The notes: a model not told the origin generated them from the letters alone. A stretch of 63,649 bases of DNA from an uncultured Bdellovibrionales bacterium (GCA_965368905.1 CBDUOS010000001.1:1-63649); one strand, 5' to 3'. Shown: positions 6,965 through 31,977, numbered from the stretch's first letter. Program-made: numbers and translations.

Positions 6965-7183
6965 AACGCGTTACTCCATTTAGAATCCGGAAAACTAACA
7001 CAGGCCCCTATAAAGGTCGAGGTTTTTTTCTATTTTTCCAGCAATTTCGGGAGTTATCCCCACTCAAATGGGTAGTTCCACAGGTTTTTCCACAGGTTAG
7101 GGGGTAGATCTAGGTAGCTACCTGCTGGAACCCACTAAATGCAGAGATTGGATTTGGCATCATGCCTATAAATCTTGCTTAAG

Positions 7184-8695
7184 CTACTGCCCCATCCCGG
7201 ATAAAAAGGTGGCATTGTCCTTGGCATTTTTCAACTTGTCCAAGAGGAACTCCATACTGTCGACCACGTTCATCGGGGCCAAAACTTTGCGCAAAATCCA
7301 GAGTCGGTTCAAGTCCGCTTTCTCGATCAACAGGTCTTCTTTTCGTGTCCCTGACTTGTTGATATCCATGCAAGGGAAGATACGTTTCTCCATCAGCTTG
7401 CGATCCAAATGAATCTCAGCATTACCAGTTCCTTTAAATTCCTCAAAGATCACCTCATCCATGCGAGACCCTGTATCAATCAAAGCTGTGGCAATAATGG
7501 TCAAACTTCCACCCTCTTCAATGTTACGGGCGGCACCAAAAAAGCGTTTAGGTTTATGAAGGGCATTGGAATCCACACCACCAGATAGGATTTTTCCAGA
7601 TGGCGGTACCACTGTGTTGTAGGCTCGCGCCAATCGTGTAATCGAATCCAGAAGGATCACCACATCGTTTTTGTTCTCAACCAAACGCTTAGCCTTTTCC
7701 AAAACCATCTCCGCCACTTGCACGTGTCGGGTTGGAGGCTCATCAAACGTTGAGCTGACCACCTCACCTTTCACATTACGCGACATATCCGTCACTTCCT
7801 CTGGTCGCTCATCAATAAGAAGAACGATCAAACGCACTTCTGGCTGATTTGCTGTGATGGCATTAGCAATATCCTGCAAAAGGACCGTCTTACCCGTTCG
7901 CGGCGGCGCCACAATCAAAGCTCTTTGTCCTTTTCCAATCGGGGCCATCAAATCCACCACCCTTGTGGTGTATTCTGTTGGCTCATGCTCCAATTTCAAA
8001 CGCTCCTCTGGATAAAGAGGAGTTAAGTTATCAAATAGAATTTTCTCTTTGGATTTCATGGGTGGCTGATGGTTCAGCTCTTCCACTTTCAAAAGGGCAA
8101 AATAGCGCTCACCCTCTTTCGGGGGGCGGACTGTTCCGCTCACCGTATCTCCAGTTCGCAACCCAAAACGTCGGATTTGCGAAGGACTCACATATATATC
8201 ATCGGGTCCCGGCAGATAGTTATAATCTGGTTTTCTCAAGAAACCGTAGCCATCAGGAAGGATTTCTAAAACCCCATCTCCAAAGACATCCACCAGTTGA
8301 GCCGCTCGTTTAAGTGTTTCGAAAACAAGCTCCTGACGTCTTAATCCAGCAGCATTTTCAATTTTTAACTTCTGAGCCAGGTTGATCACCTCTTCAATTT
8401 TTTTGGTTTTCAATCCCTTGGAGCTCAGTGCGGCTTTTTCTTCATCGGTCAATTCCACATCAGACAAATCAACGGGTTCAGAGGCACCGGCGATGGGAGG
8501 TAGGTCATCCGAGGCATTATGATCTTGTTTTGGATTACGACCGCGGCCACCACGCCCTTTTTTACTATTGCGCTGGTTATTCCGTCGTTGACGGCCACCG
8601 TTGTCATCTTTCGATCGAGTTTTTCTTTCTATTGGCTCTTTCGCAGGTTTTTCGCTCTTCGCAGCTTTTTCTTCGACAACATCAGCATCTGACAT
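7184..8695 (-). CDS. rho: Transcription termination factor Rho with an N-terminal R/G/N/Q-rich extension of about 105 aa
   Basis: Core Rho motifs are present: the RNA-binding domain ([16 protein letters not shown]), Walker A (APPRTGKT) and the Q/R loops. I place the start at the ATG at 8695 ([10 protein letters not shown]...) rather than at the track start of 8887. The extra 64 aa in the track ORF look non-protein-like. Confidence 0.9.
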
Positions 8696-8964
8696 ACTAA
8701 TACTCCATTTTTTTGGGATTCTTTTAGGTAGGGGATTTAGAGTGGTTGCATTTAACCTCGGCAGATTAGCCAAATTCTTTACCGTCCGAAAGTTAATTCT
8801 CAGTATGATACGATGAGTCAAGTTCTTTGTCGATCTTCTGAACAGGCCTCCAGAACTTGTTTCTATGTGAAACAAAAGCCTGCACAAATGTATAAAACAT
8901 TTCCAAAACCCTTATTAAATCGAAACAACTCTCCGAAGGGTTATATGAAAGATGGAGGAAACAC

Positions 8965-9324
8965 ATGATGGAAAAACCGGCTCCACGCCTGCCTTTACAG
9001 CTTCCCATTGAGTTTCGCAAAAATTATTCGAGAAAATCGGATTATGGGGATTTAAAAAATATCAGTTTAACAGGTGCCTTTTTGATCCATAGCTCGGACG
9101 AAATCACCCTCAATGACAAAATCAATATTCACTTTAAAGTGAGCGGCCGCGAGCGAACGCTCAATGCTTCCGTCGTATGGCTAAGCGAAACTGGTTGTGG
9201 ATTGCAGTTCCACCCTGATAATAATCGCGATGTACAGATCGTGGATGATCTTATGTATTTTGTAAAAGGTCGACGTAGTAAGCATAAAAACGTCTTAGAC
9301 GAAATTTTCGATAAAGTCTCTTAA
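8965..9324 (+). CDS. Stand-alone PilZ-like domain protein
   Basis: 119 aa. The stretches PRLPLQLPIEF...GDLKNISLTGAFL...INIHF...NASVVW match the PilZ beta-barrel pattern (DxSxxG-like NISLTG). The RxxxR motif is degenerate. A GGAGGA SD sits 6 nt upstream. Confidence 0.5.
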   Translation: MMEKPAPRLPLQLPIEFRKNYSRKSDYGDLKNISLTGAFLIHSSDEITLNDKINIHFKVSGRERTLNASVVWLSETGCGLQFHPDNNRDVQIVDDLMYFVKGRRSKHKNVLDEIFDKVS

Positions 9325-9346
9325 GGGCCCAAGCCCGTCCCAAACC

Positions 9347-9376
9347 AAAAAAAGGAACCCTAGGGTTCCTTTTTTT
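9347..9376. terminator. Bidirectional intrinsic terminator between convergent genes
   Basis: Perfect palindrome AAAAAAAGGAACCC-TA-GGGTTCCTTTTTTT, with an A-run and a T-run flanking a 7-bp GC-containing stem. Confidence 0.8.
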
Positions 9377-9412
9377 GTGCCCCGCGAGAAGCATTGGGTA
9401 CGGCGTACCCTT

Positions 9413-11110
9413 TTAGACTTGGGTTTGTGAAAAGTTCACGCGTTTGGCGCGACTTCTTCTGATAAAGATCAACATGATGATCGCTGCTAGTAGAAGTAGT
9501 CCTCCCAAAGCACCCATAATCATATTGTCGTCACCACTGATTGTTGCCAATGGGTCGCTGGATCCCCCGCCCATTTTCGGTGGAGCGGGCTTATTCATTG
9601 GCTTTGGCCCTTTGCTTGGTGGCGGTGGTGGAGCAACCGGTTGCTTAGCCATCGGCGGAGGAGGCGGATTACCAGCTTGTCCCATGGCCGGCGGTGGCGT
9701 GTTATTAAACTCCTCCGGATCATCCAAAGCTTCTGGCTCATCAAGATTCGCCATTTCAGTGGGCTCGTCCATTCCTTCTATAGGCTCGGGTTCTGTAAAT
9801 TCTGTCGGTTCTTCTAATCCAGGATCCGGCATTTCAGGTGGGTCGTCCATAGCAATCGGCTCGGGCTCAGGCATTTCCGTCACCGGCTCAGGCTCTGGCA
9901 CCACAGGCTCTGGTGCCGGGTCGTTCATTGCAAGAGTTTGCTGAGGAGTTCCACCGTCTGGCCAGTAGCGAATCTGCAAGCCAGCTGGAATGCGACCTTT
10001 AGATTCAATGTTGCTATTGGTGGCATAAATTTCCATCCAACTGCGGTCGTGACCTAACAAGTTCTTGGCCACCTTCCTAATATTGTCCCCTTCTTGCGAG
10101 GTATAATACGACGGCGCTAAGCTCACATCCTCATAGTAAGTCTGCATGCTTGGGTCGTTCGGGTTATTAGGAGATTCGTAATAAACTTTGTCACCCACAT
10201 CAAGAGTTCGTCCTCTGTGATGAGAGTTGAAACTGTAAAGCTTATCAGCATTGCCCGAACCATAGATTTTTTGCGCAATATTATCCATATTATCGCCCGG
10301 ACGAACAACATATAGGCGGTTCACATTACCACCAGCTCTTTTATATGAAGCCGGCTTCATTTTTTTCACAGGAACCAGGCTGTCGCTAAAACCAGCGGCT
10401 GGTTCATCATATCCAGTGCCACCATACGAAATCGGATCACTGTAATTCGGTGTATCAACCACAGGATCGAGAGTATCGGTACCAAAAAGGTCTTCCTCTT
10501 GGTTGGCCGTCATTGGTCCTTCAGGAATCCCGCCGCCTTCATCTACGAAGAGTGAGTTATCGGAAGCTGCTGAACTGTAGGGGTCGCTTCCCAAAGAATC
10601 ATCCACCTCGTCACCATCAGAAAAACTGTCATCACTTATATAATCTTCTTTGAATCCATCATCGGCAGCAGCCGCCGCCGTCGTTGTCGCCGCTGCTTCG
10701 TCTCCAAAGCCATCATCAAAACCATCATCAAAACCGTCGCCAAAATCACCACCAATTCCTTCAGCCTCTGTGCCGGCTGTTTTCGCAGCCTCGCCAAATT
10801 GTTCGTCGGGGTACTCGTCGCCAAAGTTGTCTTCGACTTCTACGTCTTCACCGCTCAGATCATCAAAGCCTTCGCCATCATCTTTGGCTACAGCCTCGGC
10901 ATCAAAGTCGTCAGCTTCAAAGTCGGCGCCCGCAGCGTCTCCCATTTCAAATTCGTCACTCGCGAACTCATCCCCATCCTCCGAAAGTTCACCAGACTCG
11001 GCCATTGTTGCCGTTTCTGCTGCTTCCTCATCAGAAGAGAACAATGAGCAACCTGTAATGTTCATTGAGAAAAAAAGTGCGAGAACAATTAATAAGATTG
11101 ATTTTTTCAT
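9413..11110 (-). CDS. Lipoprotein with an acidic D/E-rich region, two LysM domains, a PEPEP/poly-Pro region and a C-terminal TM anchor
   Basis: I place the start at MKKSILLIVLALFFSMNITGC, which has a lipobox. Two LysM-like segments are present: YVVRPGDNMDNIAQKIY...LDVGDKVYY and YTSQEGDNIRKVAKNLL...IPAGLQIRYWP. The C-terminus is GALGGLLLLAAIIMLIFIRRSRAKR. Confidence 0.7.
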   Translation of the reverse strand: MKKSILLIVLALFFSMNITGCSLFSSDEEAAETATMAESGELSEDGDEFASDEFEMGDAAGADFEADDFDAEAVAKDDGEGFDDLSGEDVEVEDNFGDEYPDEQFGEAAKTAGTEAEGIGGDFGDGFDDGFDDGFGDEAAATTTAAAAADDGFKEDYISDDSFSDGDEVDDSLGSDPYSSAASDNSLFVDEGGGIPEGPMTANQEEDLFGTDTLDPVVDTPNYSDPISYGGTGYDEPAAGFSDSLVPVKKMKPASYKRAGGNVNRLYVVRPGDNMDNIAQKIYGSGNADKLYSFNSHHRGRTLDVGDKVYYESPNNPNDPSMQTYYEDVSLAPSYYTSQEGDNIRKVAKNLLGHDRSWMEIYATNSNIESKGRIPAGLQIRYWPDGGTPQQTLAMNDPAPEPVVPEPEPVTEMPEPEPIAMDDPPEMPDPGLEEPTEFTEPEPIEGMDEPTEMANLDEPEALDDPEEFNNTPPPAMGQAGNPPPPPMAKQPVAPPPPPSKGPKPMNKPAPPKMGGGSSDPLATISGDDNMIMGALGGLLLLAAIIMLIFIRRSRAKRVNFSQTQV

Positions 11111-11242
11111 AGCTGTATCCTCAGTTCTATCTATGGTCATCCTGACATCACTATTAGATCATAACTGGGTAGAATCCGGTACGAATCGCAAAAAATCCCC
11201 GACCCATACAACCGTTTTCAGACCAGGGTCTAGGCAAAAAAA

Positions 11243-11272
11243 ACCGTGGTCGGAAGAGACCACCTCTACCAA
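11243..11272 (-). terminator. Probable intrinsic terminator after the DUF192 gene
   Basis: The minus strand reads GGTGGTC-TCTTCC-GACCACGG followed by TTTTTTTT. Confidence 0.55.
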
Positions 11273-11299
11273 AAGTCTAAGAGCAATCCTATGGTCCAG

Positions 11300-11749
11300 C
11301 TACTTGGCGGTAGGAATATTAAATTGGATGGTGTCGCCGACTTTGACTTTATGTTTTTTGAACCAGCCCTGATTGACTTCAAGAGCGTATTGGCACCGAC
11401 ATTGGCTCGGATAACTCTCAACTGTTTGCTCTCGCTCCATAAGGCTTTGCGCCTTCATTTGGTGGATTTCTTTTATGACTTTCTTTTGATCAATGTAAGC
11501 AATGGACAAGGGGATGTAGGTGTTCTTCATCCAAAAACTTAATTTTTGAGGGGCACCGAAAACAAAGAGCATTCCGCTATTTTCAGCCAATTCTGTCCGA
11601 TGCATCAGTCCCCTGGATCTGTCTGAGAAAGACTGGGCCACTTCAACCTTGATCGATTTTCCATTACTAAACTTAAGCGTCGTCTTCTCTAGACCTTGAT
11701 CCTTTGAAAAAACAAATGAAATAAGAAAAGCGCAAATCAAAGCTTTCAT
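11300..11749 (-). CDS. DUF192 family secreted protein
   Basis: 149 aa with a signal-like N-terminus. The DUF192 pattern is present: RSRGLMHR...GMLFVF...FWMKNTYIPLSIAYID...ALEVNQGWF...VGD. Confidence 0.7.
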   Translation of the reverse strand: MKALICAFLISFVFSKDQGLEKTTLKFSNGKSIKVEVAQSFSDRSRGLMHRTELAENSGMLFVFGAPQKLSFWMKNTYIPLSIAYIDQKKVIKEIHQMKAQSLMEREQTVESYPSQCRCQYALEVNQGWFKKHKVKVGDTIQFNIPTAK

Positions 11750-13179
11750 CCTTTTAACTTCTCCTTCAGTAAACGATTGACCACCTCAGGACTGGCCTGA
11801 CCTTTCGATATCTTCATCACTTGTCCAACAAAAAATCCGTACAATTTATCCTTACCATTTCTATACTCAGTCACTTTGGCAGAATTAGTCGCCAAAACAT
11901 CGTCCACCATCTTTTCGATCTGAGAATTATCAGTGATCTGTTCAAGACCTTTTTCTTTAATGATCTCAAGAGCACTTTTCCCTGACTTCCACATCTCTTC
12001 AAAAACATCTTTCGCCATACTACCAGAAATTTTCTTCCCAGAAATTTGTGAAAGCAGCTCAGAGAATTTTTCAACTGTCATGGGAAAGTTTTCCCATGAT
12101 GCATTCTCATCTTCATTAAAGAGACGCAAAAACTCACCAGTCATCCAATTACAAGTCAGCTGACTGTCGCCAGTCTGTTTCGCTACAGACTCAAAAAAGT
12201 CGGCCAATAGTTTCTCTGAAGTGAGGAGTTCACTGTCGTCGGACTTCAACCCATATTCTTCAATAAACCTCTCAAAGCGACGAGTCGGATGTTCGGGTAA
12301 AGTTTTTTTAATTTTTTGAATCTCACTTTCCTGCAGAACCAAAGGCATTAGGTCAGGTTCAGGAAAATAACGGTAATCATTGGCCTCTTCTTTCATTCGC
12401 ATTGAAAAAGTTTTATTTTTTACAGAATCATAAAGTCGCGTCTCTTGAACAATGGTTTCACCAATTTTCTTGCATTGAACTTGCCTTTGAATTTCATACT
12501 CCAATGCTTTTTCAATAAACCGAAACGAGTTGATATTCTTCAACTCCACTTTTGTTCCCAATTCTTTTTGACCTTTCGGTTTTATACTCACATTGCAATC
12601 ACAGCGTAAAGATCCCTCTTCAAGATTTCCATCACAAACCTCGGCATAGCGTAACGCTTGCCGAACAGTTTTTGCATAAGCCGCTGCTTGTTGTGGGCTG
12701 GTTATTTCAGGACGTGAGACAATTTCTAAAAGGGGAATACCTGCCCGATTGAGATTGATTAAGGTGTACTCTCCAAAATGAGTGGACTTACCGGCATCCT
12801 CTTCCATATGGGCTCTTTCAAGATTGACCCTTTGTTTCTCTCCGTCCAAATAAAATTCCACATAACCATTAGTGGCGATCGGTTTGTCATATTGAGAAAT
12901 TTGATAGCCCTTTGGCATATCAGGATAGAAATACTGTTTTCGCGCAAATACGGATTCTTTTTCTATATCGCAATTAAGCACCAAACTTGTTCGAACCGCC
13001 ATTGCAACAGCCGTTTTATTCAAGGCGGGGAGGGTCCCCGGCATTCCAGCACAAATTTCAGTGACGTTCTCATTGTGTCCCACATGAAAGTTGGTAGACG
13101 CTCCAGAAAAACATTTCGACTTGGTCGAGAGCTGAGCATGAATTTCAAGGCCTATTACGACGTCGTATTCATTCGACAT
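11746..13179 (-). CDS. gatB: Asp/Glu-tRNA amidotransferase subunit B
   Basis: [17 protein letters not shown]... is the canonical GatB N-terminus. The ATG at 13179 is preceded by AAGGAGG. The track start at 13200 is a TTG that lies inside that SD. Confidence 0.93.
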   Translation of the reverse strand: MSNEYDVVIGLEIHAQLSTKSKCFSGASTNFHVGHNENVTEICAGMPGTLPALNKTAVAMAVRTSLVLNCDIEKESVFARKQYFYPDMPKGYQISQYDKPIATNGYVEFYLDGEKQRVNLERAHMEEDAGKSTHFGEYTLINLNRAGIPLLEIVSRPEITSPQQAAAYAKTVRQALRYAEVCDGNLEEGSLRCDCNVSIKPKGQKELGTKVELKNINSFRFIEKALEYEIQRQVQCKKIGETIVQETRLYDSVKNKTFSMRMKEEANDYRYFPEPDLMPLVLQESEIQKIKKTLPEHPTRRFERFIEEYGLKSDDSELLTSEKLLADFFESVAKQTGDSQLTCNWMTGEFLRLFNEDENASWENFPMTVEKFSELLSQISGKKISGSMAKDVFEEMWKSGKSALEIIKEKGLEQITDNSQIEKMVDDVLATNSAKVTEYRNGKDKLYGFFVGQVMKISKGQASPEVVNRLLKEKLKG

Positions 13180-14634
13180 GGCAAACCTCCTTAAATCCAA
13201 GAACTTCTTCTACGCTATTTGCAAACATGATCATTTTATCATCCTGAAAGCTTGGGGCGATGATTTGCAAACCCAATGGAAGTTTTTCGCTGTTCAATGC
13301 CATCGGAAGGCTCATCGATGGCAAACCGGCCAAACTAGCAGGAGTTGTAAGAATATCATTGAAATACATAGAGATCGGGTCATTCACTTTTTCTCCAATT
13401 TTGAAAGCTGGAGCCGTGGCTACAGGTCCAACAATAAAATCACATTTTGCAAAAGCATTGGCAAAATCTTTGGCAATCAGTCGCCGCACCTGACAGGCTT
13501 TGTTGTAAAAGGCGTCAAGATACCCTGCCGAAAGCGAAAACGTTCCAAGAAGAACCCGTCTTTTCACCTCAGAACCAAAACCTTGGCTGCGGGTTCGTTT
13601 GTAAAAGTCATCGAGGCCGGTGAGGGGATGACTTTCTACATCCTGCAAGTCTCGCAGGCCATAACGAACACCATCATAACGAGACAGGTTGCTTGAAGCC
13701 TCACTGGCAGCCACTAAATAGTAAACAGGAATAGCGTATTCCGTGTGGGGCAATTCCACTTCAACAATTTCACAACCTTCGCCCTTGAGTTTTTCTAAGG
13801 TGGCATCAAGTTCACCGCGCAATTCTTCGTTTAAATCGGCAGCCATATACTCTTTGGGTAAACCAACACGACAGCCTTTTAAAGAAGTCTTTTTGTCGAC
13901 TTGAAGACTATCAAAAGGCGTTTTTACGTTCGTACTGTCTTTCATGTCTTTGTGAATCATCACCTCTAAGACCCGAGCCGAATCTTCAACGCTGCGGCCA
14001 AACGTGCCAGCCTGATCCAAAGACGATGCAAAGGCAATCATTCCAAAACGAGAAACAGATCCATAAGTGGGCTTGATTCCAACAACTCCACAGAAACTGG
14101 CAGGCTGCCGAATGGAGCCTCCCGTATCGGAACCTATCGAGACCGGAGACAAACCGGCAGCCACTGCTGCCGCAGATCCTCCACTGGAGCCTCCCGGAAC
14201 ATAGTCAGGGTTCCATGGGTTTTTGCATGGCCCAAAAAAAGAGTTCTCATTCGACGAACCCATTGCGAATTCATCCATGTTGGCTTTTCCTAGAATGATC
14301 GCTCCCTCTTGTTGCAGACGCTCAATACAATGAGCAGTGTAGGGGGGCTTAAAGTTTTCTAAAATTCGAGAGGCCGCAGTCGCCTTCATGCCGTTTACAC
14401 AAAAGTTGTCCTTCACTATGATCGGAACTCCAGTCAATCGTCCATTGGCATATTCGCCAGCGTCCACTTTCTTTGCCTGGTCGATGGCTTTTTCTGATAC
14501 CTCTAGCATAGCGTTCAAGATGGGGTTTAGGGATGAAATACGAGACAGAAGATCTTCAATAACGGGAACAGTTTTTAGTTCTTTTTTTTGAACCCCTTCA
14601 ATGTAAGAGTTTAGAGAAGTTTTGAAGAACACTA

Positions 14635-14638
<4 letters not shown>
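13169..14638 (-). CDS. gatA: Glu-tRNA(Gln) amidotransferase subunit A
   Basis: 489 aa with the amidase signature [14 protein letters not shown]...[16 protein letters not shown] overlap with the gatC stop. Confidence 0.93.
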
Positions 14639-17057
<2,419 letters not shown>

Positions 17058-17059
<2 letters not shown>

Positions 17060-17084
17060 AAAAAGCCCTGGAAAGATCCAGGGC
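17058..17084. terminator. Shared terminator hairpin between convergent ligA and the histone gene
   Basis: GCCCTGG-AAAGAT-CCAGGGC. On the minus strand it is followed by TTTTTTT, so it is the better fit as terminator of the histone gene. Confidence 0.7.
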
Positions 17085-17120
17085 TTGAAAGAAAAAACGC
17101 ACAATAATAGCTAAAGTTAA

Positions 17121-17315
17121 TTAAAGATGGTCGATGACGATGTCACGAGCCATTACGGTTTTGCGACCGTCCGCTTGAGCCGACTCAACTCCCTTTTTAC
17201 AAAGTTGCTCGACCGCTTTACTCAACACATCGACCGTTTCAGCAGAAGTGTTACAGCCAGAGCTTTCCTTGATGAACTTTTTAACTTTACTGGTAACAAC
17301 TAATACATTTGCCAT
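17121..17315 (-). CDS. Bacterial histone-fold protein, Bd0055/HBb-like singlet histone
   Basis: 64 aa: MANVLVVTSKVKKFIKESSGCNTSAETVDVLSKAVEQLCKKGVESAQADGRKTVMARDIVIDHL. It has an alpha1-L1-alpha2-L2-alpha3 layout, and GRKTVMARDI parallels the archaeal HMf segment GRKTIKAEDI. From memory it is near-identical in pattern to B. bacteriovorus Bd0055. A strong GGAGGT SD sits 5 nt upstream. Confidence 0.8.
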   Translation of the reverse strand: MANVLVVTSKVKKFIKESSGCNTSAETVDVLSKAVEQLCKKGVESAQADGRKTVMARDIVIDHL

Positions 17316-17475
17316 GATTACCTCCGAATGGTCAGGCGGTTCCTTAAAATACCAGGATAATCTAACGCATATTTCGATCTGAAGACAAAAATATTTCGTT
17401 CTGGCGGCCTACAGCAATTGACGGGTAGCTGGGAAACCCCTGAAAAATGGTGGTTTATGCGCTGCGTACGGAAAC

Positions 17476-18927
17476 TTATTTCCCGTAGAAATAGCCCTTA
17501 ACTTGGCCGTTTTCGACTTTCATTACCGTAGCTATGCGTTGTTTTTCACCAGGTTGGATCCAAATAAAGGTCTTGGCATCCTGCGCAATTGTGCACTCGA
17601 CATCAGCAAATGCCGGCGACCAGGTGCCTGAGTTGAGGTGCTCGACCCCTCCGATCAACTCGTGACGGACATCATGGGTATGACCATAGATGACCCGCCC
17701 GACACCCGTGATCAAACCCGACGTGGTCATGATTTGTTCATTCGGTTGCTTGTAATAACTGATGTAAGAATCCACACCTCGCGCATACAGAATAAAGGGA
17801 GGGAGCAAGACCAGAATGGGGATGAACATCCAAAAGAATGACAAAGCATAGATTTGCTTAATGATAATGAAAATCTGTAAAAGTAGAAATAAAGAAACCA
17901 AAACCAAGAACGCCCTGTCCAACCAAAGTTCTTTCATAATTTTAAGTGGATTAGAACCCGCCGGCTTAACAAACTGAGCGTGAAGTTCACGCACCATTCT
18001 TGGAGTAGCATTGGATCTCTTGGCAATCTTTTCCACTCGTTCTTCCACAGTCAGTGGGTCTGTTAGGGGGTGCTGTAAGTTAGAGTGTATAGTTCGCCAC
18101 AAAATAGCAACACTGCTCCAGAACCAAGTCCAAAGAATCAACGGTTGAGCTCGAACCATGTACTTAAAAAAGTAAGTGACGTACTCACCAAGAGACATCA
18201 CATAGTTGGCCTCGATATGAGGATTAAAGTACCCCATTCCATTAACCAAGTAGCGGCAGGCCCAATCACCAAAAGGTAAACGCACCTGCACTCGGTTGTA
18301 ATCAATGATAAAAGGGTTAATGGGGTCCTCACATAAACAGTAAGGATCATATTGGTTTCCATGCTCAACCAAAGTGTCTTGGTTACTGACATAAAACCAC
18401 TCAACAAAGCGCACTCGTGTTCGTTCTTCTGGAGTCAGGTCAAGAATGTTTAAAATCTCAACCTGCACGGCCTTCCAATGTAGTTCCAAATCATGATTTC
18501 CAATCACAAACACCACGCGGTGCCCCTGCTCTATGAACCAATGAAGAGTGTCACACCACTCAGAATGATCTGACATGATCACTCGAATTTTATCCACAGA
18601 CTTCTCTTCTTCTGGTTCAAGACCGCGAGTCTTTTCTATCCATGAGATATTGTAAGAAGGATGTTCCGGAAGAAAGGTAACACTGTCAAAATCGAAGATA
18701 TCCCCATTCAGAATCAACTCAACCTTTTCATCTCCCGCTTTTTCATGAATATGCTCTAAAAAGACTTTGAACTGGTCGTCAAAAAAGTAATCTCTGGATT
18801 TGTATTTCTTCCACAAAGGGTATTTAGGGTGGGTCGGCTCCGCCTCGCAAAGGTGAAGATCACTCACAATGGCGGTGTACTTTGCCTTAGTAAAGTCAAC
18901 TTCATCGAGATTAAAGTTACTCGCCAT
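17476..18927 (-). CDS. Membrane-associated metallophosphoesterase (calcineurin-like, LpxH-like motifs)
   Basis: Motifs present are SDLHL, NGDIFDFD, IGNHDLE and GHTHD. Hydrophobic TM stretches (LVLVSLFLLLQIFIII, FFWMFIPILVLLPPFILY) are inserted before the final GHTH motif. Confidence 0.7.
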   Translation of the reverse strand: MASNFNLDEVDFTKAKYTAIVSDLHLCEAEPTHPKYPLWKKYKSRDYFFDDQFKVFLEHIHEKAGDEKVELILNGDIFDFDSVTFLPEHPSYNISWIEKTRGLEPEEEKSVDKIRVIMSDHSEWCDTLHWFIEQGHRVVFVIGNHDLELHWKAVQVEILNILDLTPEERTRVRFVEWFYVSNQDTLVEHGNQYDPYCLCEDPINPFIIDYNRVQVRLPFGDWACRYLVNGMGYFNPHIEANYVMSLGEYVTYFFKYMVRAQPLILWTWFWSSVAILWRTIHSNLQHPLTDPLTVEERVEKIAKRSNATPRMVRELHAQFVKPAGSNPLKIMKELWLDRAFLVLVSLFLLLQIFIIIKQIYALSFFWMFIPILVLLPPFILYARGVDSYISYYKQPNEQIMTTSGLITGVGRVIYGHTHDVRHELIGGVEHLNSGTWSPAFADVECTIAQDAKTFIWIQPGEKQRIATVMKVENGQVKGYFYGK

Positions 18928-19664
18928 TACAACTCTTCAGGCTTATGGCCAAACCAATCCACCAAAATGATGGAAAGTTCGTAGAGTCCATAAAGAGGCA
19001 TTACCAACAAAACCATGCTCATCACATCAGGAGGTGTGATGATTGCTGAGGCCACACAAATTAAGATCAATGCATAACGACGAAGCAAGCGAAGAATTGT
19101 TGAATTCACCAACCCCATAATTCCCAAAATGGTCAGAACCAATGGTAGTTCGAAAGCCAGACCAAAAATAAGGGTGGTCGTTGTGAAAAACGAAATGTAT
19201 TCATTAATTGTGATCATTGGTTTATCTGCGGGATCACCCACACTGAACAAAAAGCCATATGCCAACGGATAAACGACAAAGTAAACGAAGAGCACTCCCG
19301 TCAAAAACAATGTTGAGCCAAACAAAATGAAATAAATTCCAAATTTCTTTTCTTTTTGATAAAGGCCCGGCGAAATAAATCTCCAAAACTGATAAACCCA
19401 AATTGGGGTCGCCATGATAACACCCGAAAGAATAGCCACCTTTAAATAACCCATGAATTTTTCTGCAGGCGCTAAAAACTTCAACCCTTCACCGTTCAAA
19501 TAGGGTTCGATGGGTGAGCGGACAATGTCGAAGAAAAACTCCTTAAACTCCCACGCGACCACTGACAAGATTGCCACGGCGATAATGGATCGAATCAATC
19601 GATCTCTCAATTCGGTGAGATGTTCCACCAAAGTGTAATCATCTGGGTGATTAGGTTTTTCCAT
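18927..19664 (-). CDS. tatC: Twin-arginine translocase subunit TatC
   Basis: 245 aa with six TM helices. LVEHLTELRDRLIRS is the canonical TatC N-terminus. The gene overlaps the upstream tatA/B-type gene. Confidence 0.9.
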   Translation of the reverse strand: MEKPNHPDDYTLVEHLTELRDRLIRSIIAVAILSVVAWEFKEFFFDIVRSPIEPYLNGEGLKFLAPAEKFMGYLKVAILSGVIMATPIWVYQFWRFISPGLYQKEKKFGIYFILFGSTLFLTGVLFVYFVVYPLAYGFLFSVGDPADKPMITINEYISFFTTTTLIFGLAFELPLVLTILGIMGLVNSTILRLLRRYALILICVASAIITPPDVMSMVLLVMPLYGLYELSIILVDWFGHKPEEL

Positions 19665-20052
19665 GATCTTTGTTTTCGCTTTCTTGTTCTACTAATTCAT
19701 CGGTTTCTTGTTCTTGCTGGTGGTCATCATGATCCCGTTGTTCTTCAGTAAGGTGATGATCCTCATTGTGATGACCTTCTTCGTGGTGTTCGTGATGGGG
19801 GTCTTCGATATTGGTGACAGAATCCATGATTTTGTGACCCTCGTTAACAATTCCCTGTTTGGTTTCATTGATCGAAGACTTCACTTCGTTGGTAACCTCG
19901 AGCAAGCCTCCACTCAAATCTTGGGTGGCTCTTTTGAGCTCAGATAGAAGACGGCCCACAACTCGGGCGACTTCTGGCAATTGCTTAGGACCAATCACGA
20001 TTAAGGCCACCACACCAATCACTAAAAATTCTGAAAAGCCTATATTGAACAC
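19651..20052 (-). CDS. tatB: TatA/TatB-family translocase subunit with a His/Asp/Glu-rich C-terminal tail
   Basis: MFNIGFSEFLVIGVVALIVIGPKQLPEVARVVGRLLSELKR is the Tat TM plus amphipathic helix. Its length and position upstream of tatC suggest it is TatB-like. The tail reads DPHHEHHEEGHHNEDHHLTEEQRDHDDH. Confidence 0.8.
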   Translation of the reverse strand: MFNIGFSEFLVIGVVALIVIGPKQLPEVARVVGRLLSELKRATQDLSGGLLEVTNEVKSSINETKQGIVNEGHKIMDSVTNIEDPHHEHHEEGHHNEDHHLTEEQRDHDDHQQEQETDELVEQESENKDHGKT

Positions 20053-20112
20053 TTAAAAGTTCCTTTGTCTTAACACCACTTCAAGATATCTTTTGGGAGA
20101 TAAAAGTTCAAT

Positions 20113-20202
20113 GCAGTAAAGGGTACGCCGTTCCTTTTTTAGCAAAAGGTCCCTCCAGCGAGGAATGGAGTGCTAAAAAAGGAACGGCGTACCCTTTACT
20201 GC
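20113..20202. repeat. Perfect 32-bp inverted repeat with a 26-nt spacer, between two co-directional genes
   Basis: The left arm GCAGTAAAGGGTACGCCGTTCCTTTTTTAGCA (20113-20144) is the exact reverse complement of the right arm at 20171-20202. The right arm contains the stop codon of the upstream gene. Confidence 0.9.
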
Positions 20203-20834
20203 TTGGTCTTCTTTTGACTGGAAGAGCTAAAATACCCCTTCTCGGCCAAGGTCTCGCCGAGGAGATTGGAACCGGTTTTAGAGTATACATCCATCATTCT
20301 GAGGATGTTTTCCTCGTCCGTCATTTTCGCTTTTTGACTGATGAGTGCCAAAACATCCACTAAATTTAAAAATTGTTCTGAAAGGTCATGGAAAAGTTTT
20401 GCGAAAGTGTCTTCTCCCACATCTTGCGCAAGGCTACCAAAGGCCATCTTACCCATGTCCACATAGTAATCCACATCGATAATTTTTCTTTGAAACGAAT
20501 CGGAGAAAAAGCCGGAGATATAGAGCGACGTGTCTCCCACCTTTTTTAACTTTTCCGCGCGAATGCGGCCACCCAACTGATTGGCACTCATATACATTTC
20601 AGCCATGGTTTTACGTGTTTTTTTTCCAGCGGTATCTTCTTCATCAAAAAGATTCTCCACAATCAGATAGTGCTTCAAGACATCCACAACATAAGTTTGG
20701 ATATGAGGGTGCATTTCAATCCGGCGCTCTTTAAATGCATCACACACTACTGTTTGAAAGTAAGCATCGGAATCAAAAATCAATTGTGACGACATAAACT
20801 CATCCTCGCTGCGTATCAGTTCCTCGACTTTCAT
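20196..20834 (-). CDS. Hypothetical cytoplasmic protein, no recognisable domain
   Basis: Long ORF with ordinary protein-like composition. I prefer the ATG at 20834 (MKVEELIRSEDEF...). The track start at 20906 is a TTG with no SD. The start is uncertain. Confidence 0.5.
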   Translation of the reverse strand: MKVEELIRSEDEFMSSQLIFDSDAYFQTVVCDAFKERRIEMHPHIQTYVVDVLKHYLIVENLFDEEDTAGKKTRKTMAEMYMSANQLGGRIRAEKLKKVGDTSLYISGFFSDSFQRKIIDVDYYVDMGKMAFGSLAQDVGEDTFAKLFHDLSEQFLNLVDVLALISQKAKMTDEENILRMMDVYSKTGSNLLGETLAEKGYFSSSSQKKTKQ

Positions 20835-21002
20835 TATAACCGAGCCTAAAGTCTTTGTGAGGCTAAGTGGGTTCTTTTTAGCGTTTCGTCTAGAATACTG
20901 TCTCAAAATAAGTCAATAATTCTAGTGTTATAAGGGTCTATTATAGGTTTCATCGAGGAATGTAATAGACCCTGTTGACGAGCCCATGGTAATTACAACG
21001 CC

Positions 21003-22199
21003 ATGAAAAAATTTGGCGCTTACGTCCACATTCCATTCTGTATTCAACGCTGTCACTATTGTGATTTCGCCACCTTCGGAAAAGACCAGATTCAAGCCAA
21101 TGATGAATACATTGATGTTCTTTGTCGTGAAATTGAAATGCGACAAAATCTTTTTATTTCTGACTCACTGGACACTCTTTATTTTGGTGGCGGCACACCC
21201 AGCCTGCTGAGCCCCGAACAATTGAATCGAATTGTGAAAAGCTTTCAAAAAGCTGGAAAAAAAATCACAGATAAAACCGAAGTAACCATCGAAGTAAATC
21301 CTGCAACCTTGGATGCCGACAAATGCTTAGCACTCAAGGAGATTGGGTTTAACCGAGTGAGTATTGGCTGCCAAAGTTTTAATGACGATTTCCTCAAGGC
21401 CTGTAACCGCGAACACTCAGCGGATCAGACTCGCGAAACCATTGAGCTGGTGAATTCACAGTTTGATAACTTTAGTCTCGATCTTTTGTTTGCGCTGCCC
21501 CATCAAAGCCTAAGCCAGCTGGAAAACGATCTGATGGAAATCAAAAGTTTTCAACCCCCTCATGTGAGTGCCTATTGTCTCACCCTTCCGGAGCACCATC
21601 CAATGAACAAAGGACGTGGGAGTGAAGAAGAGCAAGTGGAAATGTTCGAAAGAGTCTTGCACAGTTTTTCTGAAGTTGGACTCACACGCTATGAGCTTTC
21701 AAACTTCTGCAAACCAGGCTTTGAGTCCCAACATAACAATCTGTATTGGACAGACCAGAATTTCTGGGGCGTTGGGTTGAGTGCCCACTCTTACAGAAAA
21801 TCTCCTAACTATGGCTACCGCTTCTGGAATACCAAAAGCTACGACACCTATTTTAAACAAATGAATCAACTCGATGTCTCCAGTTCGATAGAAAACAGCT
21901 TTCCTTCTGAACAGTGGGAAAAGTTGAAGTTTCACGAGTCTTTGACAGACTTTTGCCACACGGGTTTACGTCTGACGCAGGGGTTAGCTTTGCAGTCAGT
22001 GCGTCAAAAATTCGGTAATCTCGCCGCTCAGATGGTCGTTGAGAAACTACAGGGACCTATTGCCAGCGACCTCGTAGAACTTCGAAAGGACCGTTTAATC
22101 CTCACAGAAAAAGGCTTCCTTTTGAGCAATCGAGTCTTCGAAGCCCTCCTAATTCTGCCTGAGGACATTGACAGGCCGCAATCAAACCCCATATTTTGA
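21003..22199 (+). CDS. hemW: Radical-SAM heme chaperone HemW / oxygen-independent coproporphyrinogen oxidase-like protein
   Basis: 398 aa. It has the motifs YVHIPFCIQRCHYCDF (CxxxCxxC), LYFGGGTPSLL and a HemN_C-like C-terminus. Confidence 0.85.
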   Translation: MKKFGAYVHIPFCIQRCHYCDFATFGKDQIQANDEYIDVLCREIEMRQNLFISDSLDTLYFGGGTPSLLSPEQLNRIVKSFQKAGKKITDKTEVTIEVNPATLDADKCLALKEIGFNRVSIGCQSFNDDFLKACNREHSADQTRETIELVNSQFDNFSLDLLFALPHQSLSQLENDLMEIKSFQPPHVSAYCLTLPEHHPMNKGRGSEEEQVEMFERVLHSFSEVGLTRYELSNFCKPGFESQHNNLYWTDQNFWGVGLSAHSYRKSPNYGYRFWNTKSYDTYFKQMNQLDVSSSIENSFPSEQWEKLKFHESLTDFCHTGLRLTQGLALQSVRQKFGNLAAQMVVEKLQGPIASDLVELRKDRLILTEKGFLLSNRVFEALLILPEDIDRPQSNPIF

Positions 22200-22210
22200 G
22201 AGAATTGTAG

Positions 22211-22783
22211 GTGAAAAATATGGCTGATGAAGACAAAGAAAATACAGAAGATTTTGGACAGGCTCATAAAGAGAACATCGATGAGGTCGATAAAACTGAG
22301 CCCAATGGGGTTGAAGAAGCCACTAACGAAGATCTCTCGCTTGAGGATCGCTTCTCCCAGTTAGAAAAAGACCACCTCTATTTGCGTGCTGAAATGGAGA
22401 ATATAAAGCGGCAAAATTTCAAAGAACGCTCTCAGCTTTTGAAATATGGGGCTGAACGCTTAGCGCGAGATCTATTAGACACTCTAGACGTCTTTCGCTC
22501 TGCCTTAGCTGCGGACATCAACCAAGACAACTACCAAGAATTCGTCAATGGCGTTAAAATGACCGAACAGACTTTAAAAACCAACCTGGAAAAACACGGA
22601 ATCATCGAGGTGGACTGTGTTGGTCAACCATTTGACCCCAATACTCAAGAAGCTTTGAGTAGCGAAGCCTCCGATGAGTATCCTGAAGGCCACGTGACCC
22701 AGGTGTTCAAACCCCCTTATCGCTACCACGATAAATTGCTCCGACCTGGACAAGTGATTGTCAGTCGAAAGAAAACTGAATAA
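22211..22783 (+). CDS. grpE: Nucleotide exchange factor GrpE
   Basis: 190 aa with an acidic N-terminus and the GrpE core LRAEMENIKRQ...DLLDTLDVFRSAL...FDPNTQEALS. The track start is the GTG at 22211. The ATG at 22220 (MADEDKEN) is an equally plausible start. Confidence 0.88.
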   Translation: MKNMADEDKENTEDFGQAHKENIDEVDKTEPNGVEEATNEDLSLEDRFSQLEKDHLYLRAEMENIKRQNFKERSQLLKYGAERLARDLLDTLDVFRSALAADINQDNYQEFVNGVKMTEQTLKTNLEKHGIIEVDCVGQPFDPNTQEALSSEASDEYPEGHVTQVFKPPYRYHDKLLRPGQVIVSRKKTE

Positions 22784-22795
22784 CATAAAGCCACT

Positions 22796-23668
22796 TTGGC
22801 TCGTAAAGACTATTACAAAATTCTAAATGTGGACCCGAAGGCCAACTTGAAAGAAATCAAGTCAGCCTATCGCCAGCTGGCCTTGAAATACCACCCTGAC
22901 CACAATCCAGATAACCCAGATGCCATCAGCATGTTCTCTGAAATCAAGGAAGCATACGAAACTTTAACCACAACAGAACTTAAGAAAAATTACGACTCTA
23001 CCTATCGACCCACCCCTAGACCACAACCAAGAGCCGAGCCCCAACCACAACCAAATGGGACAAAAGCCGGCCAGGGAGGCGGTAAAGGTAAAAACCTTCG
23101 TTACAATTTGTTCATTACTCTCGAAGATGTAGTCAGAGGATGCGACCGTACCATTCGGTATATTCGGACCAATAATAATGAAAAAGAAACTGTTCAAATA
23201 AAAGTTCGGGTTCCAAAGGGGGCCTTCCAAAACCAACGATTGAAGTTGGGAGGGTACGGAGACATTTCAAAAGATGGGGCAGGGGACCTGTTTGTCATTG
23301 TCCACATTCAAAACCATCCTATGTTTATTCGTAATGAACTTAATCTTCGAGTGAATGTTCCAATCACATATGCAGATGCGGCCTTAGGCTCTACAATCGA
23401 TGTCCCTTCACTGAATGGTATACGCAAACTGAAGCTGAAAGTCTGTGAGTTTGATGATCTCCAGCATGTTCTGCGCGGCTTTGGTCTGCCTGACCCTAAA
23501 GGAAACTTCAAAGGTGACCTTATTGTTCACTGTTTTATCGAACATCCTAAACGGTTGAGCACTCAAGAGCGAGCCAACCTAGAAAGAAGCCTCAAAACTT
23601 GGCCTCAGGGCGAAATGATGCAACAATACCAGGTCTACTTACGGGAACTAAAAGGGAGCAAAAAATGA
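22796..23668 (+). CDS. Class II J-domain co-chaperone, CbpA-like (no Zn-finger domain)
   Basis: J domain KDYYKILNV...YRQLALKYHPDHNPDN (HPD motif), then a P/Q-rich linker and DnaJ C-terminal beta domains. There are no CxxCxGxG repeats. The start is a TTG. Confidence 0.85.
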   Translation: MARKDYYKILNVDPKANLKEIKSAYRQLALKYHPDHNPDNPDAISMFSEIKEAYETLTTTELKKNYDSTYRPTPRPQPRAEPQPQPNGTKAGQGGGKGKNLRYNLFITLEDVVRGCDRTIRYIRTNNNEKETVQIKVRVPKGAFQNQRLKLGGYGDISKDGAGDLFVIVHIQNHPMFIRNELNLRVNVPITYADAALGSTIDVPSLNGIRKLKLKVCEFDDLQHVLRGFGLPDPKGNFKGDLIVHCFIEHPKRLSTQERANLERSLKTWPQGEMMQQYQVYLRELKGSKK

Positions 23669-25623
23669 GATCTCTGATTCTTTTTTCCACATTATTTTTC
23701 ATGATTTCTTGCTCCACATTCAGTCGCAAAGAAAAACTCAACCAGGCTCCAGAGCCCGTTAAAGTTCAGCTAAACAAAGCCACCCAAGAGTTTCAGCAGA
23801 AAAAATACAGCCAAGCTGTTAAAACACTGAATGGCATTTTAAAATTTCATCGCAGCACAGAGACTGGTGATGATGCGCTTTTCTTATTAGCTAAGACTTA
23901 CTCTCGTATGGAGAATTGGGAAAAATCGCTGAATGCTTACAAGGCGCTTTATGATTCTCAATACTATTCTAGCCGAGAGTCACAGGCTCGAGTAGCGGCA
24001 GCTAAAATTTTCACCTACAAAATTGGTGATTATAAACAGGCTCTCTATTTGGTCGAAAAATCTCTGGATACACGATTAGACCGGGAACAGAAGGGAGACC
24101 TTTTGGAAGTTCGCTTCACTTGTCTGATGCGAACAGGATCACAGTTAGAAGCCTTCGAAACCCTAGTCCAGCTTTCAGAACAACACCCCAATGCTTCAAA
24201 AAGAGAGGGGTTTAAAAGAAAAGCAAAAGCCTTCTTGGATTCTCGCTTAACTGGTCCAGATCTAAAGGACTTCGCCAATGACAGTCGAGAATCTGATTTA
24301 AAAGTCGATGCCATGTACCGCTACGGTGTCCATTTGATGGGGGAAGGTAAATATGGTGAGGCACGCTCTTACTTTGAGAGCGTCATCTCAATGCGACCCA
24401 AAAGTTATGTCAGCACCCAAGCCGCTCAACTTCTCGAACAGCTCTCTGCAAGAGGAAAAGTTAATCAACGAACCATTGGTGTCGTATTACCATTGAGTGG
24501 TCGCTACTCTAGTATTGGCTACCAAGCCTTGTGGGGGTTGCAATTGGCCCTTGGAATCAAGGGCGGTCAGAACACGGAGAACGTGCGCTTAGCTGTGATC
24601 GATAGTCGAGGAAATGCAGAAGAAGCACGCAAGGCGGTGAAGCGCTTAATTGAAGAGGATCATTCCATTGCAATTATCGGCGGGCTGCTCGGTAAAACTG
24701 CCTATTCTGCAGCCATTCAATCACAAGACCTGGGTGTACCTTTTCTCGCTCTATCACAAAAAGAGGGTTTGACCGATATTGGTCCATTTATTTTTCGAAA
24801 CGCTCTCACCATCGATTCTCAGTTGGATCAATTGATTGATACGGCAATGGCGAAAATGAAGTTTAAGAAGTTTGCCATTCTTTATCCCAATGATCCCTAT
24901 GGTGTGAAAATCAGCAATCTTTTTTGGAAGAAGGTACAAGAAAAGGGTGGCCAGATTTCAGGTGCCCAGTCTTATTTGCCTGGCGAAACCGACTTTAATG
25001 AACATATTCAAAAACTGGTTGGTACTTTCTACATTGCCGATCGACAAAAAGAATACTCCAAACGTTTGAAAGAATGGTACGAAAAACAACCCAAAGGATC
25101 TCGACGACGCAAGAAACCCCCTGTCGGCTTACTTCCCCCAATTGTAGATTTCGAAGCTGTTTTTATTCCGGATGGACCAAAAGCGATCGGGCAGATCGCC
25201 CCAATGCTCGCTTATAACGATGTAAACAATGTCTACCTCATTGGCACCAATATATGGAATTCCAATGAGTTTTTACGGCGCGGACAAAATTTTGTTGGAA
25301 AGTCAATTTTTACAGATGGTTTCTATGGAAAAGACGAAAGATTTTTAAGCTCCCGCTTTTACCATAATTACACAGAAACTTTTAACAAAGCCCCTTCTAC
25401 TTTTGCGTTGTTAGGTTATGACTCTGGTCTAGTCCTACGATCTGTTTTATCCCAGGGAGTGGAAAATCGATTGGATTTCGCAAAGGTTATCCAGCAAAAC
25501 AAAGGAGTTCCTGGAGCTCTTAATACTCTTGTTCTTAATAATAAGAAGGAATTCGTACGACCCGTCGTCACATTGACCGTAAAAGAGGGTGAGATTGTGC
25601 CGTTCACAACCGAGGAACTCTAA
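23665..25623 (+). CDS. Lipoprotein with an N-terminal TPR-like domain and a type-1 periplasmic-binding-protein fold (LpoA-like / Leu-Ile-Val-binding-like)
   Basis: I place the start at MRSLILFSTLFFMISCSTF, which has a lipobox, giving an ATGA overlap with the J-protein stop. The N-terminal half is helical-repeat. The C-terminal half (IGVVLPLSGRYSSIGYQALWG...AIIGGL...) follows the Peripla_BP_6-like pattern. This two-domain layout is the one known for the PBP1A activator LpoA. Confidence 0.65.
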   Translation: MRSLILFSTLFFMISCSTFSRKEKLNQAPEPVKVQLNKATQEFQQKKYSQAVKTLNGILKFHRSTETGDDALFLLAKTYSRMENWEKSLNAYKALYDSQYYSSRESQARVAAAKIFTYKIGDYKQALYLVEKSLDTRLDREQKGDLLEVRFTCLMRTGSQLEAFETLVQLSEQHPNASKREGFKRKAKAFLDSRLTGPDLKDFANDSRESDLKVDAMYRYGVHLMGEGKYGEARSYFESVISMRPKSYVSTQAAQLLEQLSARGKVNQRTIGVVLPLSGRYSSIGYQALWGLQLALGIKGGQNTENVRLAVIDSRGNAEEARKAVKRLIEEDHSIAIIGGLLGKTAYSAAIQSQDLGVPFLALSQKEGLTDIGPFIFRNALTIDSQLDQLIDTAMAKMKFKKFAILYPNDPYGVKISNLFWKKVQEKGGQISGAQSYLPGETDFNEHIQKLVGTFYIADRQKEYSKRLKEWYEKQPKGSRRRKKPPVGLLPPIVDFEAVFIPDGPKAIGQIAPMLAYNDVNNVYLIGTNIWNSNEFLRRGQNFVGKSIFTDGFYGKDERFLSSRFYHNYTETFNKAPSTFALLGYDSGLVLRSVLSQGVENRLDFAKVIQQNKGVPGALNTLVLNNKKEFVRPVVTLTVKEGEIVPFTTEEL

Positions 25624-25893
25624 CCTTTGTCCATAGACTTTTGACCCCACGCCCTGTTCTCCAGTACAGGAGCGGGTTTTAAAACTGTCTCTAGACGAAA
25701 CACCATAAATAGAATTTATTTAAACCATTAAAACTCATACTGCAGGTAACCACGCGTTTTCTTTACCAAAGCCTCAAACTGCCTTTATAAGCTCGGAATC
25801 TCGACCTTTTTGGGACCTTTGAAACCTAAATAATATTTTCTATCTTCCGAAAAAATAACTAAGGCAACAGTGAATTTCTGATGGAGGCCGTGA

Positions 25894-31242: not shown

Positions 31243-31977
31243 ATGATTAGCCCCTATGGTACAGAACGTGAGTTCACCATCGACCCTGGTTGCCCCTGGT
31301 ATGAAGCTCAACAGACATATGGCCCTCCAAATGTGAATTGGTGCGAACCAACTACTTGTGCCCTCATCAATGAACCCATCAACACTTGGACCAATATGGG
31401 TCTTGTATTGGTTGGAGTTTATATTTTATTTAGGTTTAAAAGCTACTTAGGTCGTTTTTTGGGTGGGACTGTTTTAATGATGGGTGTTTTTTCTTTTATC
31501 TATCACGCTTCAAATAACTTTCTCACCCAGTACCTCGACTTTCTCGGTATGTTTACTGTGATGAGCTTTATCTTTGCCGGATCTCTTTTGCGTTTTTTTA
31601 AAGCCAGCCAAGGTTCATTCTTTAATTGGTATTGGTTTATTTTCGCTATGCACTGTGTGATATTTATGATCTTTCATATCAGCAAAATCCCCGTTCAATA
31701 CATTATGTATGTCAGCCTTGGCCCCGTCATCTTGCTAGAATTGCTTATATTTTTAAGAACAAAACAATTTTCTGAGCAGAAGTTCTTTTTTGCGGGTGTA
31801 TTTTTAACCGTCTTGGCGCAAGTGATCGCGATCACCGATATACAACGGATTTATTGCAATCCTAATGGTTGGATCCACGGTCATGCCCTTTGGCACTTGA
31901 TCGGGGCACCAGCGGCATACTGTCTAGCACGCCACTATGACCATCATTTTCTGAATTCACGATCCAACTGGGTTTAA
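31243..31977 (+). CDS. Alkaline-ceramidase-family (ACER/YPC1-like) 7-TM membrane hydrolase
   Basis: 244 aa with about 7 TM helices. It contains NWCEP...INEPINTWTN, YHASNN and HGHALWHLIG, the hallmark WCE / NT.SN / H..WH motifs of the ceramidase family (PF05875), recalled from memory. Confidence 0.6.
   Translation: MISPYGTEREFTIDPGCPWYEAQQTYGPPNVNWCEPTTCALINEPINTWTNMGLVLVGVYILFRFKSYLGRFLGGTVLMMGVFSFIYHASNNFLTQYLDFLGMFTVMSFIFAGSLLRFFKASQGSFFNWYWFIFAMHCVIFMIFHISKIPVQYIMYVSLGPVILLELLIFLRTKQFSEQKFFFAGVFLTVLAQVIAITDIQRIYCNPNGWIHGHALWHLIGAPAAYCLARHYDHHFLNSRSNWV

Follow-up and report, generated by a model that had tools for sequence, protein, structure and literature searches.

An ortholog of the Bdellovibrio bacteriovorus histone HBb encoded beside ligA in an uncultured Bdellovibrionales bacterium

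We analyzed a 63,649-nucleotide stretch of DNA (hereafter the window) from an uncultured Pseudobdellovibrionaceae/Bdellovibrionales bacterium. Positions 17121..17315 on the minus strand contain a 64-codon reading frame that begins with ATG and encodes the protein MANVLVVTSKVKKFIKESSGCNTSAETVDVLSKAVEQLCKKGVESAQADGRKTVMARDIVIDHL. An in-frame start codon 5' of this ATG was looked for and none was found. The reading frame itself, homology, a Pfam match, an AF2 model and dN/dS values place the product among the alpha3-truncated histones of the 'bacterial dimer' type. Dozens of ORFs of at least 40 amino acids overlap the region, and a length of 64 codons is within chance; the reality of the gene thus rests on homology and on its substitution pattern. 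Its GC content is 44%, compared to 42% for the window. A 58-amino acid antisense ORF (17127..17303, plus strand) lies wholly within the histone coding sequence and was judged spurious, as the minus-strand frame explains the substitutions.

The histone gene follows tatB, tatC and a membrane metallophosphoesterase gene, and it is convergent with ligA, beyond which lies gatCAB. The wider neighborhood consists of housekeeping genes (rho, gatCAB, ligA, tatBC, grpE-dnaJ and lon) whose order is conserved across Bdellovibrionales. The arrangement of phosphoesterase, histone, convergent ligA and gatC/gatA is common to the window and five complete Bdellovibrio sp. genomes (L049, L051, L052, L058 and L063; HD100 is not in this set). 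A scan of GTDB species representatives identified 285 loci with a histone relative, and in 67 of the best 80 of these ligA is convergent immediately 3' of the histone gene. The ligA ORF as listed (14888..17059, plus strand, 723 amino acids) starts too far 5' and would run into the divergent gatC; the ligA gene call on an identical contig, L082, corresponds to window positions 15005..17059 (684 amino acids). The phosphoesterase gene (17476..18927, minus strand) overlaps tatC by one base and encodes a 483-amino acid protein whose N-terminal domain is calcineurin-like (Pfam, 32 bits) and whose C-terminal half is hydrophobic. It is found just 5' of the histone gene in 46 of the same best 80 loci.

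Several features elsewhere in the window were also recorded. A TPP riboswitch (Rfam RF00059, 63.3 bits) at 34004..34105 on the minus strand lies directly 5' of a gene for a TonB-dependent receptor with Plug and beta-barrel regions (31974..34010, minus strand). This arrangement suggests thiamine-regulated outer-membrane uptake. The listed GTG start of the receptor overlaps the TPP aptamer, and the true start is thus probably further downstream. Positions 37335..44375 (minus strand) contain only membrane-arm genes of NADH dehydrogenase: nuoH, nuoJ, (K), L, M and N. Here nuoJ begins 3 nt after nuoH, nuoI is absent between the two, and the upstream side, where a divergent mfd (44816..48244) is found, has no nuoA-G genes, implying that the peripheral-arm genes are elsewhere or absent. 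Finally, four large tandem ORFs of 1188, 306, 1257 and 1319 amino acids occupy 50656..62877 (minus strand). Apart from a weak Met-zincin DUF4953 match in the last, they have no Pfam match, and they may encode secreted or predation-related proteins.

A phmmer search with the 64-amino acid protein against all PDB sequences returned HBb/Bd0055 (8fvx/8fw7 and 8cmp/9ezz/9f0e) as the top match, with an E-value of about 4e-29. Residues 1-64 align to residues 1-64 of HBb without gaps, and 54 of the 64 positions (84%) are identical. A close resemblance to Bd0055 had been put forward in the original prediction, and the search bears this out over the full length of the protein. Far behind HBb in the same search are HTkC (9F2C; E-value 4e-7), HmvA, the M. 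kandleri histone 1F1E, HLp (3e-3), and Asgard and Pyrococcus histones. Similarity to archaeal nucleosomal histones is marginal (E-values 0.04-0.45; HMfA, 0.44). A family profile built from 51 members sharpens this order, with HBb at an E-value of 4e-40 followed by HTkC, HmvA, HLp, HMk and an Asgard histone. The protein also matches the Pfam family CBFD_NFYB_HMF (PF00808) over residues 10-59, at 24.6 bits (gathering threshold 21.4; E-value 3.1e-5). It scores 28.2 bits against the NCBIfam model archaea_histone (NF043032), under the cut-off of 50.

Structure prediction gives a consistent picture. An AF2 model based on the family alignment (mean pLDDT 84.2) contains helices at residues 6-19 and 25-48 and a turn at 56-58. 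Alpha2 is thus 24 residues long and alpha3 is a three-residue turn, and this combination of a shortened alpha2 with a single-turn alpha3 matches published descriptions of HBb (PMC10627809; PMC11317129). A Foldseek search of the PDB with the model returned HBb chains as all of the top five matches (TM-scores 0.78-0.86, rmsd 1.5-1.7 Å), followed by HTkC and HLp and then by Asgard HHoB, HPhA and eukaryotic H2B/H4. In summary, the fit of the model to HBb has a TM-score of about 0.83 and an rmsd of about 1.6 Å. The single-histone-fold pattern first read from this 64-amino acid gene is therefore recovered by the ORF, by PF00808 and by AF2 with Foldseek; similarity search and fold prediction both return a histone, and a non-histone fold did not emerge. 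The L2/alpha3 motif GRKTVMARDIVI spans residues 50-61, and its proposed likeness to archaeal histones holds in that a GRKT(V/I) motif is common to both. Sequence and predicted structure together identify 17121..17315 (minus strand) as encoding an ortholog of the B. bacteriovorus histone HBb (Bd0055).

The residues on which HBb function has been reported to depend are retained. Hocher et al. (PMC10627809) stressed the RKTV motif of L2, the RD clamp and a bacterial S9-K10 motif; they described Bd0055 as having neither the sprocket arginine nor the tetramerisation histidine, and they found that the changes S45F/A48H/I61L are needed before it brings DNA ends together. In HBb crystals, DNA is contacted by K12, T23, S24, A25, K52, T53, R57, T8, S9 and K10 (Hu et al., PMC11317129). 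The contacts in molecular dynamics (MD) simulations are N22, R57, S9, T53, T8, S24, K10, K12, K52 and K16, the clamp comprises R51-D58 plus D49, and the dimer core is formed by V11, L31, I35, L38 and I59 (PMC11317129). All 10 MD contacts and all crystal contacts are unchanged in the window protein, which also keeps the R51-D58 clamp, D49, S9-K10, and S45, A48 and I61. R51, K52, T53, R57 and D58 are invariant in 158 distinct 64-amino acid family sequences. In the dimer core, V11, L31, L38 and I59 are the same and the sole change is a conservative I35V. Given this near-identity of the core, the window protein probably homodimerises.

Ten substitutions separate HBb from the window protein (E3N, L14F, K18S, G19S, Q20G, M21C, I28V, I35V, L40K and K47Q), and most fall in the L1 loop and on solvent faces of helices. 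Net charge (K+R minus D+E) is +2 in both proteins. All ten substituted states are common among the 158 family sequences; at three of the sites (14, 21 and 35) it is HBb that has a minority residue and the window protein that follows the majority of the family. We considered whether the window protein is a functional variant of HBb and found no sign of this, as its ten differences are all common family states. The L1 loop, ESSGCNTS, has no arginine at the sprocket position of nucleosomal histones. Cys21, which adjoins the DNA contacts N22-S24, is found in 138 of the 158 family sequences (HBb has Met), and Cys39 is invariant.

The histone gene is far more conserved than its surroundings. Identity to Bdellovibrio spp. 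is 84-86% for the histone, compared to 50-57% for LigA, GatA and the phosphoesterase. Relative to two sister species (L086 and L001), the histone coding sequence has accumulated 19-20 synonymous and 0 non-synonymous changes (dN/dS about 0.01); the histone protein is 100% identical in these species and the flanking DNA ~76% identical. The dN/dS of the gene stays near 0.01-0.09 out to Bdellovibrio spp. Judged by these substitution patterns, purifying selection on the histone is extreme. Two NCBI MAGs labelled Pseudobdellovibrionaceae (GCA_041259715.1 and GCA_964588335.1) encode the identical protein, with flanking DNA ~76% identical to the window.

Among the best 80 of the 285 loci, all except one carry Bdellovibrio, Bdellovibrionales, Pseudobdellovibrionaceae or similar labels. 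The exception is a 3,406-bp contig (L057, JBLMWG010000244.1) from a MAG labelled 'Bacillota bacterium', with a histone that is 86% identical. Its gene order is of the Bdellovibrionales type (phosphoesterase, histone, ligA, gatC), and mis-binning, not a Firmicute histone, is the most likely explanation. A scan of IMG/VR identified five predicted viral contigs (L087-L091) with alpha3-type histone relatives that are 33-58% identical and keep RKTVMARD. The published 'phage histone' category is probably where these relatives belong. They are distant from the window gene and are not the same gene, and we saw nothing to suggest that a phage carries the window copy.

The signals around the gene agree with those first described for it: a near-consensus Shine-Dalgarno sequence, an upstream gap of its own and a terminator. 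The Shine-Dalgarno sequence GGAGGT (17320..17325, minus strand) was read directly from the sequence 4 nt 5' of the ATG, and this hexamer occurs only 11 times in the whole window. Its pairing with the anti-Shine-Dalgarno sequence (-10.8 kcal/mol) ranks third among 17 neighboring genes, after gatB and gatC, and the site is thus strong, though not unique. GGAGG lies within 20 nt 5' of the start in 60 of the best 80 of the 285 loci. The preceding gene on the same strand (17476..18927) lies 160 nt away. An intrinsic terminator, consisting of a hairpin and a T-run (17056..17086, minus strand), is the only terminator-like site in a scan of 16900..17600. Its stem-loop, AAGCCCTGGA-TCTT-TCCAGGGCTT (17063..17086), has a 10-bp GC-rich stem followed by the T-run, and its folding energy of -19.1 kcal/mol corresponds to z = -4.0 relative to shuffled sequences. 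The T-tail overlaps the final bases of the convergent ligA stop codon. A hairpin with a T-run is present within 90 nt 3' of the histone gene in 69 of the best 80 loci. The stem sequences are unrelated between loci, and it is the structure of the terminator that is conserved.

Upstream-region alignments revealed a conserved non-coding block, TTTTGTCTTCAGATCGAAATATGCGTTAGATTA (17358..17390, minus strand), that is a candidate promoter. It reads as a -35-like TTGTCT (17383..17388), an 18-nt spacer and a -10-like TAGATT (17359..17364), scores 8/12 to the sigma-70 consensus and would give a leader of ~37 nt. The block is nearly unchanged in species with only 66-76% identity in the flanking DNA, and it is unique in the window. 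A sigma-70 scan of 16900..17600 found no site scoring at least 9/12. The block falls below this threshold, and we therefore infer, from its conservation and layout, rather than identify, a dedicated promoter of the histone gene at 17358..17390. A probable 5' untranslated leader (17326..17357, minus strand; putative start) would follow, and the closest species retain its 3' part, CCGCCTGACCATTSGGAGGTAAT. A second conserved upstream element, TTTCAGGGGTTTCCCAG (17429..17445, minus strand), is kept in L001, L004, L005, L007, L009, L081 and L086; it is present as a single copy in the window, and a 17-mer match that allows 3 mismatches could by itself arise by chance.

Other interpretations of the upstream region were rejected. 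Each upstream motif occurs once in the window, which argues against a repeated regulatory element. The 163-nt upstream stretch does not resemble a structured leader or riboswitch (folding z = 0.06 relative to shuffled sequences; no Rfam match), and by eye the spacing fits neither the sigma-54 nor the sigma-28 consensus.

The original prediction also held that the gene is expressed highly and independently. The strong local signals favor this claim; it is weakened by the absence of a promoter scoring at least 9/12 and of a terminator separating the gene from the upstream operon. The scan found no terminator between the histone gene and the upstream tatB-tatC-phosphoesterase genes, so read-through is possible and may add to histone transcription. 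In B. bacteriovorus, bd0055 is in the top 6% of transcripts, and Bd0055 ranks 12th of 2,125 proteins in attack-phase cells (PMC10627809). Independent, high expression of the window histone is plausible by analogy, being consistent with these B. bacteriovorus data.

The candidate promoter block contains an imperfect inverted repeat, ATATTTTTGTC / GATCGAAATAT, that overlaps the -35 and the spacer. In B. bacteriovorus, bd0055 mRNA peaks late in growth phase. A cell-cycle regulator that controls when the histone is made could use the repeat as its operator, and Cys21 together with Cys39 could make DNA binding redox-sensitive. That such an operator and such redox features might add a layer of regulation undescribed for HBb strikes us as quite improbable.

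We consider it very likely that the window protein is an HBb ortholog, of the 7-kDa 'bacterial dimer' class, with HBb-like dimeric DNA binding, local bending and a role in the nucleoid. Two chains would pair their alpha2 helices in antiparallel orientation to give a histone-fold homodimer. This dimer is predicted to bind DNA without sequence preference, contacting backbone phosphates across the minor groove through residues of the L1-L2 loops (N22, T23, S24, A25; K52, T53, R57) and of the start of alpha1 (T8, S9, K10, K12, K16). Individual dimers would bend DNA locally, and MD simulations of HBb give a bend of about 84 degrees per dimer (PMC11317129); at very high protein:DNA ratios, dense coating may be possible. 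With S45, A48 and I61 in place of the archaeal tetramerisation residues, nucleosome-like wraps would not be expected to form. The product would be a nucleoid protein that is abundant and nearly essential, and its gene would form a unit capable of monocistronic expression, with a strong Shine-Dalgarno sequence and its own terminator. Abundance, nucleoid localisation and essentiality are carried over from B. bacteriovorus and probably apply here. According to a 2025 preprint, the in vivo function of HBb remains unknown.

The binding geometry of HBb is disputed between a sheath on straight DNA (PMC10627809) and bending (PMC11317129), and the same protein could instead encase straight DNA as an end-on nucleohistone filament. 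In such a filament, each dimer would use a single L1-L2 site and dimers would pack side by side, about one per 2.5 bp, through contacts between a basic ridge and an acidic underside and through exchanged N-terminal tails. This arrangement is seen in a Bd0055-DNA crystal and is consistent with the binding of more than 60 dimers to 147 bp in AUC, with the lack of FRET between DNA ends and with EMSA ladders (PMC10627809). The window protein retains the packing residues, its N-terminal tail reads ANVL (AEVL in HBb) and its net charge is the same, although tail position 3, E in HBb, is N here and varies between D, E and N in the family. The very high attack-phase abundance of Bd0055 would also favor dense coating. 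Against a filament, isolated dimers bend DNA according to TPM, ligase-mediated circularisation and topology assays as well as a second crystal form and MD, and no MNase protection was observed (PMC11317129); later work of structural groups has handled HBb as a bender. The sequence itself does not discriminate between bending and a sheath. We regard the filament as possible but rather unlikely as the main binding mode. We favor bending at moderate occupancy, with dense coating possible at attack-phase concentrations.

Two further explanations depart more sharply from an HBb-like bending dimer. The protein could assemble into tetramers or hypernucleosomes and wrap DNA around them, either as a nucleosomal (HMfB-like) histone or as a face-to-face tetramer of the HLp/HTkC type, with which it has in common the histone fold, an RKT...D motif and weaker, significant matches to HTkC and HLp as well as similarity to archaeal histones. 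We find wrapping highly improbable: S45, A48 and I61 are exactly the residues that had to be changed to F, H and L for Bd0055 to bridge DNA ends, alpha3 is a single turn, L1 has no sprocket arginine, the archaea_histone score is well short of its cut-off, and identity is 84% to HBb but 36-41% to HLp and HTkC. To the idea that the gene is not a genuine resident chromatin gene at all, whether a chance ORF, a contaminant, a recent transfer or a histone fold that does not organise the genome, we assign next to no probability. Short ORFs are frequent by chance, bacterial histones are patchy and some reported cases are contaminants (PMC10627809), and predicted viral contigs carry related alpha3 histones. 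The same 20-kb stretch, however, recurs at 99.98-100% identity in independent assemblies from several samples: window positions 7121..27315 are 99.985% identical to ENA metagenome contig L082, and two further assemblies are 100% identical. The gene also sits among housekeeping genes in conserved order, its GC content is near that of the window, its dN/dS is about 0.01, and relatives are found in 285 species-representative genomes, the best 80 of which are nearly all Bdellovibrio-like. Positional orthology and histone-like conservation together exclude that the ORF is spurious, a contaminant or recently transferred.

The window histone is thus an ordinary ortholog, of a gene kind already known in the lineage where it would be expected. 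Homologs of Bd0055 are found in 67% of Bdellovibrionota genomes and are highly conserved (Hocher et al., PMC10627809). Schwab et al. described a 'bacterial dimer' category within alpha3-truncated histones, and this category was defined by sequence clustering (PMC11390915). In a 2026 paper, Bdellovibrio, Pseudobdellovibrio and Peredibacter are contrasted with respect to their histone genes. Publications of 2023-2025 cover the family and its structure, how widely it is spread within Bdellovibrionota, and its likely essentiality. Novelty is low because such histones are already catalogued in Bdellovibrionota and because the identical protein is present in public MAGs. The gene had been put forward as both a taxonomic marker and a point of interest for chromatin biology; it does serve as a useful taxonomic marker, whereas its wider interest was overrated given the histones already catalogued in the phylum. 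Its presence is a reliable marker of a Bdellovibrio-like predatory bacterium with a histone-fold nucleoid protein. The locus adds a data point on the conservation of HBb-type histones (100% amino-acid identity with neighboring DNA at ~76%), and its promoter-like block is potentially useful for the study of histone expression timing in these bacteria.

The closest known system is HBb/Bd0055 of B. bacteriovorus HD100 (UniProt Q6MRM1; 8FVX, 8FW7, 8CMP, 9EZZ, 9F0E). Both proteins are 64 amino acids long and align without gaps, and they are alike in DNA contacts, predicted fold and ligA/gatCAB neighborhood. Their hosts differ in family-level lineage and in GC content (50.5% for the HBb host, 42% here). 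HTkC (T. kodakarensis, 9F2C) and HLp (Leptospira perolatii, 9QT0) belong to the same alpha3-truncated superfamily, have the RKT motif and a short alpha2 and alpha3 in common with the window protein and reach Foldseek TM-scores of 0.70-0.81 to its model, but their identity to it is just 36-41%. HTkC and HLp are stable tetramers that wrap about 60 bp, whereas HBb-type proteins are strict dimers without the face-to-face (FtF) dimer-dimer residues. In an approximate mapping counted from the RKT motif, the FtF interface residues (Arg and Asn, 6 and 2 positions ahead of the motif's arginine) are absent from the window protein, which has S45 and D49 instead.

The archaeal histones HMfA/HMfB, HPhA and HTkA have the histone fold, minor-groove binding by L1-L2 and the RD clamp in common with the window protein. 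Compared to archaeal nucleosomal histones, the window protein has an alpha2 that is one turn shorter and an alpha3 of a single turn, and it has neither the sprocket arginine nor an H49-type residue of the four-helix bundle (A48 instead). The HBb type forms no hypernucleosomes (PMC10627809). A search of six-frame ORFs of at least 40 amino acids in the 63.6-kb window, which used the family HMM together with E. coli HU, IHF and Fis query sequences, returned only the histone gene itself and found no HU, IHF, Fis or second (Bd3044-like) histone there. B. bacteriovorus has HU, IHF, Fis, Dps and the second histone Bd3044 alongside HBb (2025 preprint). The likeness of the window protein to HU and IHF is one of functional analogy only, as small, abundant, dimeric and sequence-nonspecific DNA benders of unrelated fold, and the TPM values of HBb are comparable to those of HU (PMC11317129).
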